Counted from the stretch's first letter, positions 47,601 to 56,600 are shown. The stretch is 64,000 nt of DNA from Octopus vulgaris (GCA_951406725.2 OX597842.1:13826001-13890000); one strand, 5' to 3'. Notes: generated by a model not told the origin, from the letters alone. Translations and numbers: made by a program.

Positions 47601-50600
47601 TCCGTGTTATCTTCGCGAAGACTAGAGTCTCCACTTTATTTTTTTCATACGACATTATGATATCCATTTTCTTTTCCGTAACTGTGTTGGAAAAGAATCT
47701 TTGGTACCCTGATAAATCTACAGCCACCTTGCATTAGCCGTGCCATTTTCATTGCTCACAGGAATTTTCTTCTTGAAACAGATCGGCTGTCCTGAGAGCA
47801 CGAAGGTAATGAAATCTCTGGTTAGGTTTTCAATGATTTTCTTCCACTGTTGATAAGAACAATTTGCTCCTTTATAGCATTGAAGATAAACTTAGGGAGC
47901 AGTTTATGTCCCCATTTATATCTGTTGAATGCCAATGAAGAGTTGGAAAGAATATGTTGCAGGGTTCCAACTTTTCCGTATTTGCATATATCATTTTCTG
48001 AGACGTTTCTTCTTACTAGGTTTGTAGGCGATGGCAAGACATCGTAAGATGAACGAATAAGAAAACTTAGCGGAGATGTAGTCCAAGATTCCAACGTATT
48101 TTTCTCTCAACATGTTCCTCCCATTTTCCTGTTATTTATTTCTCTTTGCTTAGTGTAAAACTTACACCTTGTTTTTTTACCTCGTATTCGTGTTACATAT
48201 TTTGTGCGTGTGTCAGTGTAGATTTATGTATATATATATATATATATATATATATATATACATATACAGTTGAAATTTACAGAAAGACAAAAGAGGAAGA
48301 CATGTGTATAATGAACAAACTGGTGTATCAGTTTATCGCTCGGGAAGATAAGGAAGTCTCTTACGTTTCGAGCCTACGCTCTTCAAAAGAACGAGGAAAT
48401 AAACACAGAGAGTGAATAAATATATACACGCGTATACGTATGATTAAGTCTGTGAAGAGAGTGAAGCAGAGAGACAAACAGCGTCAGGGAATTAATAGAT
48501 ACTCACGGCTCTAGATACGTTTACAGCAGATGGTTTGTATTCGCTGGATTTCTTTAATGTTGAATTGTAAATTAGATGAAACAGAAAGAAATTGGTCCAG
48601 CCTATGGGATGATAGAAAAATAGAAGGGTATCATTGAGATTAGGAACAAGACACACACGACAGATGTAGTAAAATATATACACTTACACATTTATAAAGG
48701 ATAAATTGTCTTATTTATTTGTATTCGGTTCAGTCTATTTAAAATCTCAATGAAACATCTAATCTCTTTATGTCGATTAGCCCGGTTGAGATTTTGCTCA
48801 TATGCAAATTTCATTTATATTTTATAAATTTGTAATAGGTATTGAGTAAAAGTGAAACAATTGTAGGCATTCTAATTATCTATAAGTTAATAAATTAGAT
48901 TATATCTATATACTCTCGATTTTCGTCTTGTTTATCATATGCTACATTTTTAATACACAAACACACACACACAAACGCGCGCGCGTGCGCGCTCACACAC
49001 ACATACTCACACACACATATATATAAATTCTATTTTCTCCAGCGCCGCCGTGAGTGATACATCATTTGAACGATATAGAGAATATTCCATCAGCATTCCC
49101 CCAACGACCTCAAATTTAGTTTCAGCATCCATCCAAGGTCAGGACCCTTAGTCGTACGTCCCCTCCACAATTTAGAATCACAAAACATAGATACACTGCG
49201 ACACAAATTCTTTTCCTCAACAGCCACTGCCTTATTTAACATTGTCTCAAAACAGATCAATGAGAGAAAGGACCCCATAACATTTGAGGGAATCTAGAGA
49301 ATTTTCTTCAAGGGATGTCAGTAAACCACATATTCCTGGATACAAATGAATCAACAAGAACTCCTTACTCAAATGGGCCATGATACCACAAAATATGACC
49401 TAAGGAGGATTTAGCAAATCCCATTCGGTTGTACTATTAAGTTAGACATTTCCTGGACACATCTTTGGTCGAAACATCTCTAAATTACATATATCTTCGA
49501 TCATACCTAAGGAAGACGATTTGTTGCATAGTAGGCTCCGAAACAGCGTGATGTGTATTACTACCACAAACCACCGGGTTTTTTAAACACCTGAAAGTCA
49601 TGGACAGGCTAGACAAATCGCCCTAAATTCCATTCAGTGAGGATGGGTGTCGATGCTTAACAACTTGTACTTTGACAGGATGATACCCCCTTCGTTGAAT
49701 CGCAGTCTTCCTTCAAACACACAACACATTAAGTATGTGATCGATGAAGCTTATAACACGAGTGCTGCTTCTATTTCAGTTTTGAATATTCTGTTTCATA
49801 TAAAGATTAATATCCTCCCTTGGCATTTCCAAGTATTTGATACCACGGAAAAGGATTCAATTATGGATTAGAGTTTAAGCCATTTAACATATAGTTATGG
49901 TCAGTGATATAGCTTGCAGCAGATCTTGTTCGGTACGTGACATTGAAAGTCACAACAATGACCATGCATCGTTGTCTGTCACTCAGAAAAAGGGACCTGA
50001 TGTAAGTTGCTTCACTTCCCTCTAACTTACGTTCAGGTGTTTTTAAGAATATATTCTCCTAAACCTAAAACGCAGCCGACACATCAACTAACATCCCACA
50101 CACACACATAAATATATATATGTGTATATGTGTGAGTGTGTGTTATGTGTGCGTGTGTGTATGCGTGTGTGTGCATGCGTGTATGTGTTGTGCATTGTCG
50201 ACTGACATTTCTGTTGACAGGACACCGATTTTAAATAAAGTGTTTTATAGTAATAATATACAAATTAGTGTCTCCAGGTGTCTGAAGTTACAAGAACTGT
50301 TGTTTATATAAACAGCTGTGTTACTTGTTTCTCTGGGATTGGTCAAGTGATGTACGCACCTCTAATGGGAACGCAATCAATTTTGAAAACTGATTACGGC
50401 GAATATATCTTTTCATATATTAACTATTATACAATTTTCTTATTAATCACCCACGTCTAATAAATCAGGTTAAATTATATAAGAAAATAAACATCGCTTA
50501 CCAATGGAATAGTTCCTGTTGCATAAGTTTCCGGTGCAACAACTAACACAAGAAGCGCCACTGGTCCATTTATTGCATGTAAAGGTATTGTTTCTCAGAG

Positions 50601-53600: not shown

Positions 53601-56600
53601 TAATCTATACAATACAAAAATATCCGTACTTAGGAACCAAATATGTAATGTATAAGAATAAGAGGAAATAAACACTTTGTGGTGTAAACCAAATGTAAAA
53701 GTGTTAAGGTTGGAATCAATACATGTGAGATATTTAAAGAAAATTATTAATGAAGACTATAAGAGAATGTTACGACTTTCATTTACAATTATTTCAGTCG
53801 TTAGAAATTCAACTGAGAATACTATGGAAGCTATTTGATGGCCTTTTCTATTTGTATTTTGCTCTCACAAAAAAGTGCGAAAATTGTGGAAGAACTCAAT
53901 TAAAGGGAAATAATTCTGAACTGGTGATTTATGCTTTTGTAGAATGAACTCCTTTATAAAATCTGTGAATGTCATTAAAAGTTTCTGACAACTGATGTTG
54001 CTGTGTTTACCTCGCCATAACCTAGCGGTTCGGAAAAAGACACTGATAATACTGGAAACTAGCAGGCTTGTGGGGTCATCAGGAGAAACTACACACACAC
54101 ACACACACACACATATATATATATATATATAAACACACACACACACACACACACACATATATATATATATATATAAACACACACACACACACACACACAC
54201 ACACAAAGGGCTACACACACACACACACACAACATACACATATATATATATATATATATATATATACATATATATACTTGGCGGTTGGCGAAATACCGAC
54301 AGAATAAGGACATGGGTTTATTTGTTCGACTAAATGTGATGCTCCACCTTGGCCGGAATCACATAACTGAAGTCCATTTTAATCCTGGTTATCTCTGCTA
54401 ATATCTCTGCTAATGTGTGTGTGTGTGTGTGTGTGTGTGTGTGTGTGTGTGTGTGTATTCAATGAAGCTTTCACTGATATTCAAAAGTAGAATTGTTATA
54501 ATGTCTAAATCTCTCTAAAGTAGAGATACAACAGCAGTACTGGGTATTAATATTTATTGACAAACAAACGTGGTAGTCTAGAGAAGTAGGACGAATGCTG
54601 CTGTTGATGAGCTCCGAGAAGGGATCACATCTAACTAGCTACATGCCGCACAAATCTGCGTGCATAAACCTTCGAAGAGGGGAAGTCATCGATTTCCCTC
54701 TGCTGGTTTCACACTCACTGACTGGTTTCGAGGTAATTGCCCTTTATCAATATGGAGCAGGCGAGTTCACTAGGGGTCACTTGACTTCTGTTTGAGGATT
54801 CCATTCAGTGAAACACATTCCCTGATTTTCAGAAATAGAAATGTTATAATTTCAAAATCTCAGCAGTAAGAGGTATTAATACATATTGCCAAACTAAATT
54901 GGGAGTCCAGAGAAATAGAAGGAATGCTGAACAGAGGTCAACAGCGACCCCTGCTGGCTTCGGCTACTCCACGTCGATAAGGAGCAACTACCCCGAAAAC
55001 GGTCTGTTGATGCCAAGCCAGCAAGGGGAAGTTGATGACCTATCCCGTTCGAAGGTTTATGGACGCAGATTTGTGCATTATATAGCTAATCTCAACAGCA
55101 GAATTCCTCCTATATCTATGGACCACCTCATTAGTTTGGCAATAAATAAGTATCAGTTGAACGCTGCCGTCGATGTAATCAACTAGTTCCCTCCTCACAA
55201 AATTTCGGGCCTTGTGGCTGATGTTATATATATATATATACATATATATATATATATATATATATATATATATATATATGTATGTATGTATTTATATATA
55301 CATATATATATATATATATATATATATTTATGTATATATATATATATATATATATATATGCATGTATGTATGTGTGTATGTATATATATATATATATGTA
55401 TATGTATATATGTATATGTATATGTATATATATATATATGTATATGTATATATATATGTATGTATGTATATATATATATATATATATATATATATATATA
55501 TATATATATATATATATATATGACATGTGTGTGTGCGTGTGCCTGTGTATGTTATACTTTATTCTTTATTCTTTTACTTGTTTCAGTCATTTGACTCCGA
55601 CCATGCTAAAGTACCGCCTTTAGTCGAACAAATCGACCCCATATATTATTCTTTGTAAGCCTAGTACTTATTCTGTCGTTTACGTTGCCGGACCGCCACG
55701 TTACGGAGACGTAAACACACCAGCATCGGCTATCAAGCGACAGTGAGTGGGACAAGCCCAGATAAACAAACACACACACACACACACACTCATATATATA
55801 TATATATATATATATATATATATATATATATATATATATATACATACAAGGTGGGTTTATTTCAGTTTCCCTCTACCAAATCTACTCACAAGGCCTTAGT
55901 CGGACGGTGTCATGCAGTGGTACTAAAGCCAGAAGCATTTGGTTGGGAAGCAAGCTTCTTACCACAGAGCCACTCTGTGTATGTGTGTGGGGGTATGTAT
56001 GTGTACATGTATATATTTACATACAGTCTCTCCTGATATTATGAGCAGGAGAGAATAACCCGGAGTTCTCCTTATGGTAATAAGCCACATGGCCTGATTT
56101 TTTTTTGTGGGGAGGAAATTAGCTGACTACATCGACCGCAGTGTTTAACTGATACTTATTTTATCGATCCTGAGAAGGTGAAAGGCAAAATCGAATTGAA
56201 CAGAGTTTGAAATAAGACTGTAACGTTGCACGAAATGTTGCTGAGCGCTTTGTCCGGCGTGCTAAGCATTGTGTTATTCGCCGACGTTGTTAGTGCTAAT
56301 AATTAAATAACAAAAACAAGGAAGATTTTACTAACTTTGACATTGCGAGTATTCCATTATAGGTATAATTTTGCTTTGGATATTGCCAGGATCTGTCTGA
56401 CACTCGCCTAGGACACTCACAGTTCTGTAGAATGTTGATTTAGTATAATGTACCAAGGCTGGCAGGTGACATCCACACATCATATCTTTATTGTATCTTA
56501 GATCACTGAAATTATAAACAAAACCCTAAGAGGTATAGAGAAGCCGCTGTTGTATTTGACAAGAAAGGAGGATAATATAATTCCAGCAAGAATATAAAAA

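Follow-up and report, generated by a model that had tools for sequence, protein, structure and literature searches.

Among G-protein-coupled receptors (GPCRs), those of the adhesion class couple an extracellular head to a seven-transmembrane (7TM) domain by way of a self-cleaving GAIN domain. In ADGRA2 and ADGRA3 the order of domains is LRR-Ig-HormR-GAIN-7TM, the head beginning with leucine-rich repeats (LRR). Here we describe an octopus gene with an LRR head of another kind, found in a 64,000-nucleotide stretch of Octopus vulgaris DNA (GCA_951406725.2, OX597842.1:13826001-13890000; the whole stretch is called the window below), in which an LU, or three-finger, domain follows the repeats. Several described systems lie close to it. 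ADGRG6 (GPR126) has a SEA-HormR-GAIN stalk that, in the portion of the work available, is reported to be tuned by splicing (PMC6954182). LyAr2 and LyAp2 of starfish are LU domains within adhesion GPCRs (PMC9410279, in its accessible part), Asterias has two LU adhesion GPCR genes with a proposed Lynx2-like role (PMC11595613, likewise), and a further study reports LU+7TM genes from echinoderms, molluscs and arthropods in a figure whose legend includes GPS and LRR (PMC13719153). Octopuses have their own adhesion GPCR expansion, group 3, with ~21 sequences over three species, for which the available text names only LRR and Death domains (PMC6408891).

Within the window lies the 3′ part of what looks like an intact adhesion GPCR gene of octopus (Table 1). 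Comparison of database homologues with the window, followed by fixing of splice sites, yielded 19 exons, all bounded by GT-AG, which together form one 1008-aa open frame. In order, they encode the last LRR, the LRRCT cap, LU (two exons), a SEA-like domain (three), HormR (two), GAIN (four), the GPCR proteolysis site (GPS) and the 7TM domain and tail (five). Past the window end lie at least 11 further 72-bp LRR exons (strict pattern) and, ~88 kb beyond the window edge, a signal-peptide/LRRNT exon, the signal peptide being judged by eye and by likeness to homologue P0007; the whole gene spans ~141 kb and encodes ~1,330-1,360 aa. GPS and 7tm_2 both score above cut-off, and together with the large modular N-terminus and its signal peptide they are features of the adhesion (class B2) receptors. 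The architecture is very probably signal peptide-LRR(~12)-LRRCT-LU-SEA-like-HormR-GAIN-7TM. Two of the outer LRR exons, at window-extended positions 69475-69404 and 67313-67242 (L011), share the same translation 2.2 kb apart and may stem from a recent duplication within the gene or from a repeat in the assembly.

The two LU exons, of 92 and 184 bp, are bounded by ag/gt with phases 1-0-1 and splice to an in-frame peptide that contains 12 Cys, opens with LxCxxC and closes with CCxxxxCN. A preliminary description had joined these same exons into a 12-Cys peptide, and its coordinates and peptide agree with ours. It had also set LU between the LRRCT and HormR exons; the LRRCT exon does precede in phase, but three SEA-like exons separate LU from HormR. 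These three total 306 bp with phase 1-1, so that skipping them keeps the frame, which is why the direct LU-HormR join of that description reads through. Its LRR-LU-HormR-GAIN-7TM order gives way to one in which a SEA-like domain follows LU, here and in 36 of 42 homologues, and its 840-aa protein to a window part of 1008 aa with the SEA-like exons or 906 aa without them.

In LU domains the disulfides pair cysteines 1-5, 2-3, 4-6, 7-8 and 9-10. The LU consensus comprises 60-90 residues with 10 consensus cysteines and an Asn right after the last Cys, as set out in the accessible part of a review (PMC6600238). The octopus domain, with ~80 residues and 12 Cys, fits these bounds, and its CN end is invariant in 19/19 aligned LU second exons. 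Searched against 177,635 PDB sequences, a profile of 19 LU second exons returned three matches at E<=10, all of them LU domains: Lynx2/LYPD1 at the top (E=0.0039, gapless, all 8 exon-2 Cys aligned) and two ACVR1 ectodomains. An AlphaFold2 model of homologue P0008 (LU 71% identical; 37 sequences) scored 74 in the predicted local distance difference test (pLDDT). Its residues 56-143 superpose with Prod1 (Z 7.6, root-mean-square deviation (rmsd) 2.9, 71 aligned), Lynx2 (Z 7.5, rmsd 3.0, 81/86 residues), uPAR (Z 7.3), GPIHBP1 (Z 7.1) and LYPD6B (Z 6.8), and every structural match confined to the LU region is an LU protein. The alignments to Prod1, Lynx2, GPIHBP1 and LYPD6B cover 71-83 residues. 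Foldseek matched the same model to Lynx2 with probability 1.00, a TM score of 0.66 by target and E=0.047. LU-like clusters at scores of 0.76-0.83 in the ESM Atlas are leads, and the Atlas gave no match for the LU-SEA part of P0036, a distant homologue. The module consists of two exons between phase-1 introns, as in Ly6/uPAR genes; its internal intron, of phase 0, lies before finger 2 and not at the loop-2 tip as in those genes. Because profile, Cys pattern, terminal CN, phase-1 flanks and predicted fold all agree with the published consensus, we conclude that the profile and the predicted fold identify an LU/three-finger domain, of Lynx2/LYPD1 type, as the preliminary description had proposed for the fold; the structural check it suggested, run on P0008, gave a predicted three-finger match.

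The gene falls outside the Ly6/uPAR family in the narrow sense, its LU being an internal domain of a 7TM receptor and not a secreted or glycosylphosphatidylinositol (GPI)-anchored LU-only protein. One database fragment bears the NCBI name 'ly6/PLAUR domain-containing protein 1-like', and the named homologues at >=95% identity are Octopus proteins.

SEA domains have a ferredoxin-like fold of about 100-110 residues. Downstream of LU, residues 145-251 of the P0008 model adopt a beta-alpha-beta-beta-alpha-beta, ferredoxin-like order, at a pLDDT of mostly 74-93 with one block at 65. For residues 143-262 the top-scoring match is TMPRSS6, in its SEA region (Z 9.7, rmsd 3.7, 113 residues aligned), with 2e7v (Z 8.4), zebrafish ADGRG6 (7.7) and MUC16 (7.7) as further SEA matches. 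We call this domain SEA-like because of its predicted fold, a sub-threshold Pfam hit and its position, extracellular and directly ahead of HormR, which it shares with ADGRG6. Where SEA domains are cleaved, the beta2-beta3 loop holds a furin site or a GSVVV motif. The GS[VI][VI] cleavage motif (GSVVV type) occurred in 0/13 proteins, nor was a furin site found in the SEA-like domain; an RRKR furin-like site lies in HormR of P0036 (residue 473) and P0053 (residue 479) and is absent from the 11 octopod sequences checked. Precomputed hits to Pfam PF26588 fall on several homologues.

Among 53 collected proteins, a set that includes isoforms and near-duplicates, 42 have LU and extend past it, with the SEA-like domain next in 36 and none in 6. 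Gene model P0022 joins LU directly to HormR, and a paralogous locus with matching LU (L027, L090) has all three SEA-like exons; the join suggests exon skipping, and may be a modelling error. By analogy with ADGRG6, a splice-variable ectodomain is plausible for the octopus receptor. At C8:79028392-79083080 of the 2.8-Gb genome G000, eight SEA-like third exons lie in tandem at ~7.5-8 kb spacing downstream of an LU exon, which we read from the exon order as a gene with a long repeated stalk.

Several observations count against these assignments. The splice model is built on splice signals, frame and homologues, most of which are gene models too. On LU exon 2 alone, Pfam UPAR_LY6_2 reached E=0.009 and 16.6 bits against a cut-off of 31.5, and Pfam listed no LU family for those homologues that were scanned in search of one. 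Folds were predicted on homologues P0008 and P0002, not on the window's own sequence, and all Z-scores lie below 10, a range that the structure-comparison tool calls common; Foldseek with the P0008 model gave nothing at E<=0.001. The model of P0002 (96% identical; 24 sequences) was poor, with pLDDT 51 and a best Z of 3.8; its top 7 structural matches are all LU proteins (Z 3.0-3.8), and we did not rely on it. For the SEA-like domain, non-SEA ferredoxin-like folds score comparably (Z 8.5-9.0; CCA-adding enzyme 9.0, MscS 8.9), and Pfam SEA was matched below its cut-off in 1/13 homologues, from Argonauta (E=0.013, 16.1 bits vs 26.4, positions 4-100/106).

LU exons of this kind are numerous and maintained. 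In G000, a search with LU exon 2 listed 67 matches, 65 of them at E<1e-8 (a lower bound), and among 42 loci scanned every one that yielded both exons shows the two-exon split. The window pair and 19 equal-length paralogous pairs, chosen because both exons fell inside the fetched stretch, contain a stop codon in 0/20. Across these 20 pairs the non-synonymous substitution rate over the synonymous one (dN/dS) averages 0.40 (0.52 without Cys), dN exceeds dS in 6 of 190 pairwise comparisons, and pN/pS, the corresponding ratio of proportions, runs from 0.51 in finger 1 up to 0.77 in helix/finger 3. The LU exons are thus preserved far beyond chance and under purifying selection. Among 11 octopod homologues the mean identity of LU (0.57) equals that of GAIN and 7TM (0.55-0.57), so LU is not hypervariable.

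This constraint, and a position inside the chain with both ends fused, would also suit a domain that serves mainly as a rigid spacer, keeping the LRR solenoid apart from the stalk as an Ig often does after LRRCT, with the LRRs doing the binding. Even so, we hold that role unlikely. Between the window gene and P0036, LU is the best-conserved extracellular domain (0.49 vs 0.22-0.41, partly a Cys effect), and it is retained in the 6/42 gene models that drop SEA or SEA+HormR. The loops and sheet of LU domains are generally interaction surfaces, according to the accessible review text (PMC6600238), and the rise in pN/pS towards helix/finger 3 also speaks against a pure spacer.

The nearest solved relatives, Lynx2/LYPD1 and LYPD6B, raise another thought, also aired in the preliminary description, that LU acts by analogy as a Lynx/Sleepless/LYPD6-like modulator of nicotinic acetylcholine receptors, K+ channels or LRP5/6, in tethered or shed form. 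The HL/T cleavage motif is intact in 29/29 GPS exons, so the head is releasable in principle, and a similar role has been proposed for starfish LyAr2 in the part of the report available (PMC11595613). We nevertheless find this very doubtful: having a fold in common does not establish function, the structural alignment puts identity to Lynx2 at 17-22%, and LU is flanked here by LRRCT and SEA, not near the membrane as in GPI-anchored modulators.

To which subfamily does the receptor belong? For GAIN-7TM of two homologues the best solved matches are ADGRG6, G2 and G4 (E 4e-66 to 3.5e-47); latrophilins, ADGRE, D and F rank below these, and the lists hold no ADGRA chain. Database names agree, with 15/19 hits called ADGRG6 or ADGRG6-like. 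UniProt A0A0L8FLR8 and A0A0L8HDZ7 (P0048, P0049) are group 3 members that share the LU-SEA-HormR-GAIN-7TM order, and ADGRG1-6 are the human sequences nearest to the octopus expansion in the part of the published analysis consulted (Ritschard 2019, PMC6408891). Judged by its sequence, the gene is most probably an ADGRG-like member of octopod group 3; our own 13-sequence GAIN-7TM tree has weak deep support (no outgroup). The preliminary description had pictured instead an ADGRA receptor with LU in place of Ig, and the LRR-X-HormR-GAIN order does resemble ADGRA2/3, as does one database name, 'adhesion G protein-coupled receptor A3'. Given the ADGRG solved matches and the placement of group 3 near ADGRG1-G6, that framing is unsupported and most improbable: the SEA-like domain before HormR is an ADGRG6 trait, and LU plus the SEA-like domain hold the place of Ig. 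Nor is the gene an ADGRG6/GPR126 orthologue, since an LRR-LU head stands in place of CUB-pentraxin, though the stalk probably works alike.

The GPS of the window gene reads H-L/T-S-F-A-L-Q-M. The available text of one study describes residue X0.50 as the most conserved of the tethered agonist, packing on tryptophans of transmembrane helix 6 (TM6) and extracellular loop 2 (PMC13470171). We parsed 29 GPS exons from 30 loci fetched, of 54 GPS matches in G000; five, those of the window gene and its four sister copies, have Gln at this position, and 24/24 others have Leu. Further traits of the five-copy subfamily are a linker to TM1 shorter by ~7 residues, an Asp in TM5 and a Ser for the TM6 Gly. 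A micro-exon that might restore the post-GPS residues was sought and not found; paralogues have their acceptor at the equivalent position, which puts the shortening inside the exon. The subfamily comprises the window GPS exon and L053-L057, with a truncated C-tail at L085.

These substitutions could mark the window copy as a decaying duplicate, the functional receptors being other paralogues, a notion to which the truncated tail of one sister and the 23/65 LU exons unpaired with a 7TM exon (below) would add. We regard it as quite unlikely, given that the 19 exons keep an open frame and canonical splice sites throughout, that the same changes are common to five copies whose TM5-7 frames are all open, and that signal and LRR exons are present upstream. 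The Gln-X0.50 copies are probably cleavable receptors that signal weakly through the tethered agonist or by another route.

Beyond LU exons, G000 contains 60 last-7TM-exon matches (58 places after two split pairs were merged) and 54 GPS-exon matches. Like the LU matches, most of these lie on contigs C29, C30 and C31. Pairing LU with 7TM by proximity, not by transcript, we found that 42/65 LU exons are followed within 130 kb by a 7TM exon on the same strand, with 37 different 7TM exons involved; shuffling of strands gave a mean of 21 and a maximum of 30 in 1000 trials. The remaining 23, with no same-strand 7TM exon inside 130 kb, may be fragments, may encode secreted forms or may reflect breaks in the assembly. 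Counting the window gene's own, 12 LU second exons match its sequence at 89-100% identity; four of these pair with a 7TM exon 92-100% identical to the window's, five with a type 49-52% identical, and three are unpaired. Conversely, a 96%-identical 7TM exon is paired with an LU only 55% identical. Heads and 7TM types thus show apparent mixing among paralogues (C29, C8, C9, C10).

Some family members depart from the common plan. P0011, P0027 and L042 have tandem LU domains, consistent with duplication of a phase 1-1 module. P0037 carries a cytoplasmic Death domain at residues 1203-1277 (Pfam E=3.3e-6), a feature that Ritschard 2019 records too, with 71% of its expression in skin. A paralogue at C12:58.12-58.18 Mb (L058, L092, L093) has SEA, GPS and 7TM exons, and no LU or LRRCT exon was found in the ~15 kb upstream of its first SEA exon.

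Two distant homologues, P0036 and P0053, have the full LRR-LU-SEA-HormR-GAIN-7TM order; one, found on three contigs of 4.0-4.4 kb, has 1155 aa, and the other, with 4.4 kb as its longest contig, has 1161 aa; set beside a gene of ~141 kb, contigs of this size imply assembled spliced mRNA. Domain by domain they are 62-91% identical to each other and 22-49% to the window gene, and both have canonical tethered-agonist cores. In their domain coordinates they are similar to the one group 3 member of squid, from which we infer that they probably come from the squid/cuttlefish side. A close, slow-evolving copy like P0036 was sought in G000 and not found (best 55% to P0035). A 56-position LU profile run against 1.84 billion representatives gave 27 matches and no starfish GPCR, the profile being too short to show absence; the 10 matches looked up were five named octopod proteins, one sea-cucumber LU-repeat protein without 7TM and four unnamed. 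The best named non-cephalopod match, P0039 of Holothuria, has four LU domains with Thr-rich spacers and no 7TM. A word-seeded search with residues 178-515 of P0036 recovered only P0036 and P0053, and is too seed-limited to show absence elsewhere.

The squid light organ and accessory nidamental gland house bacterial symbionts. In the published supplements, as far as available, the squid member E. scolopes cluster_8002 has 84% of its expression in the light organ and 16% in the accessory nidamental gland, over seven tissues, and is labelled group 0 in supplement 2 and group 3 in supplement 3 (PMC6408891). The same source, within the parts consulted, places octopus group 3 expression outside the brain, the tissues being axial nerve cord, suckers, skin and gills, with one member at 71% skin and 17% sucker and another broad (PMC6408891).

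We therefore favour, with a probability of about 0.6, a receptor in which an LRR+LU head on an ADGRG6-like stalk recognises surface ligands at epithelia and peripheral tissue; group 3 expression outside the brain and the squid member's presence in the light organ and accessory nidamental gland are the reasons for this preference. Two points count the other way: some octopus members are mostly nerve cord or broad, a poor fit to a purely epithelial role (PMC6408891, available part), and LU and SEA of the squid member are read from domain coordinates only. The readings discussed in this text are not mutually exclusive.

Onto the exon structure, frame, domain identities by profile or predicted fold, copy number and purifying selection on LU exons described above, we place a candidate mechanism to which, as a whole, we would give even odds. 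The LRR solenoid and a disulfide-locked LU packed on its C-cap would form a ligand-binding head, taking the place of CUB-pentraxin in ADGRG6, and a SEA-HormR-GAIN stalk would carry it. GAIN would cleave itself at HL/T, and ligand binding or a pull on the head would be relayed to the 7TM domain; skipping of the phase 1-1 SEA cassette would shorten the stalk. The likely task would be recognition of surface ligands on host cell, matrix or microbe at epithelia and peripheral tissue, with a repertoire diversified by tandem duplication and by head/7TM mixing among paralogues. In the window copy and its four sisters, where the key tethered-agonist Leu is lost, signalling may be weak or take another route. 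A more specific extension is tentative and, taken jointly, unlikely: a cephalopod LRR-LU-SEA GPCR repertoire, paired-receptor-like, would serve microbe or self recognition and descend from a symbiosis-organ receptor, squid keeping one conserved gene while octopods reached dozens by tandem duplication and head/7TM swapping, with the degenerate-tethered-agonist subfamilies as decoy or damping partners.

In addition to the receptor exons, the window contains transposase and zinc-finger remnants and some broken frames, listed at the foot of Table 1. The Tc1/mariner remnants match Pfam HTH_Tnp_Tc3_2 (E=2e-14 and 0.001) and Transposase_1 (E=3e-27), while the broken frames that look by eye like reverse-transcriptase tails of long interspersed nuclear elements (LINEs) had a Pfam match in none of the four pieces tried. 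HormR, weak in the window gene, reaches HRM E=0.0007-0.01 in homologues, below the curated cut-off.

Table 1. Receptor exons and other features in the window, with the evidence for each.
Feature	Position	Strand	Evidence
Last LRR exon, 72 bp, phase 2-2	62160..62231	-	Pfam LRR_8 E=0.007, weak
LRRCT cap exon	56336..56505	-	CxC..C..C pattern kept in homologues; in phase ahead of LU exons
LU exon 1: linker and finger 1, Cys 1-4	53513..53604	-	Strands 58-64 and 67-76 in P0008 model
LU exon 2: finger 2, helix/finger 3, CCxxxxCN end, Cys 5-12	50502..50685	-	Gapless match to Lynx2/LYPD1 6zss, E=0.0039
SEA-like exon 1	48507..48601	-	Homologue comparison, splice sites, P0008 model
SEA-like exon 2	44620..44672	-	Homologue comparison, splice sites
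SEA-like exon 3	41824..41981	-	Homologue comparison, splice sites
HormR exon 1	35124..35238	-	HRM E=0.11, weak
HormR exon 2	32080..32249	-	Homologue comparison, splice sites
GAIN exons 30242-30011, 29577-29406, 21596-21447, 20233-20105	20105..30242	-	Homologue P0026 aligns to ADGRG2 and ADGRG6 GAIN
GPS exon, HL/T cleavage motif intact, Gln at X0.50	19465..19614	-	GPS E=5e-15
7TM/tail exons 18794-18694, 17796-17673, 14741-14597, 13105-13033, 11565-10923 (stop)	10923..18794	-	7tm_2 E=2.7e-10, last exon
Tc1/mariner transposase remnant	9916..10554	+	Pfam (see text)
Tc1/mariner transposase remnant	25288..25641	+	Pfam (see text)
Tc1/mariner transposase remnant	39759..40055	-	Pfam (see text)
Degenerate C2H2 zinc-finger array remnant	6332..6754	+	zf-C2H2 E=3e-5, below cut-off
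Broken frame, LINE reverse-transcriptase-like tail	45110..46895	+	By eye
Broken frame, LINE reverse-transcriptase-like tail	16544..17481		By eye
Broken frame, LINE reverse-transcriptase-like tail	117..1043	+	By eye

How new is this receptor? The preliminary description had thought the architecture possibly undescribed, a view overtaken by LU adhesion GPCRs in print for starfish (2022, 2024) and LU+7TM genes published from molluscs and arthropods in 2026; the receptor does not make a new class. In a literature search that covered subscription papers little, we found no description of LRR-LU-SEA-HormR-GAIN-7TM or of LU in the octopus expansion, and a 2026 adhesion GPCR review, covered up to character 300,000 of 412,533, has 0 occurrences of Ly6, uPAR, three-finger or octopus. 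The SUPERFAMILY entry SSF57302 is, we presume, 'snake toxin-like'. A single hit to it, undescribed, stands at the LU position of one member in the group 3 InterPro table, within the material available (PMC6408891). The molluscan example of PMC13719153, whose legend, in the part available, has no SEA, may itself be a group 3-like cephalopod gene and would then bear directly on novelty.

Set beside group 3 as published, the window gene shares LRR, GPS, an adhesion 7TM, an occasional Death domain and tandem clustering; it differs in that LU and SEA go unnamed in the available main text (PMC6408891), while one genome here has 65 LU-exon matches and 37 7TM exons paired with LU. The octopus expansion is a named cephalopod gene-family novelty whose ectodomain had been described only as 'LRR'. 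Its resolution into LRR-LU-SEA-HormR-GAIN offers testable constructs, for the binding domain, for splicing of the SEA cassette and for signalling by the subfamily with a defective Stachel, or tethered agonist. Starfish LyAr2/LyAp2 resemble it in having LU in the N-terminal region of an adhesion-type GPCR, and starfish LU groups with Lynx2/LYPD6; on the published record as available, Asterias has two such genes against dozens in octopus.

ADGRG6, with its CUB-PTX-SEA-HormR-GAIN-7TM order (PMC6954182, in the part available), shares the SEA-HormR-GAIN-7TM order and is the best or near-best solved GAIN-7TM match. The octopus receptor differs from it in its LRR-LU head, in the lack of a furin/GSVVV site in the SEA-like domain, and in belonging to a large tandem family where ADGRG6 is one gene. 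With ADGRA2/3 it has in common N-terminal LRRs and LRRCT, one small domain and then HormR-GAIN, but it has no Ig, an extra SEA-like domain and a 7TM allied to ADGRG in the published tree; the LRR head common to both is probably convergent. Lynx2/LYPD1, LYPD6/6B, Prod1 and GPIHBP1 share with the octopus domain a predicted three-finger fold, gapless exon-2 Cys spacing (Lynx2), the terminal CN and a two-exon phase-1 module, whereas the octopus LU is internal to a polytopic receptor and has its internal intron before finger 2, in phase 0. A 2019 review, in its available text, regards LU as a shuffled module of multidomain proteins as rare (PMC6600238); in the octopus receptor, itself a multidomain protein, LU is truly such a shuffled module.

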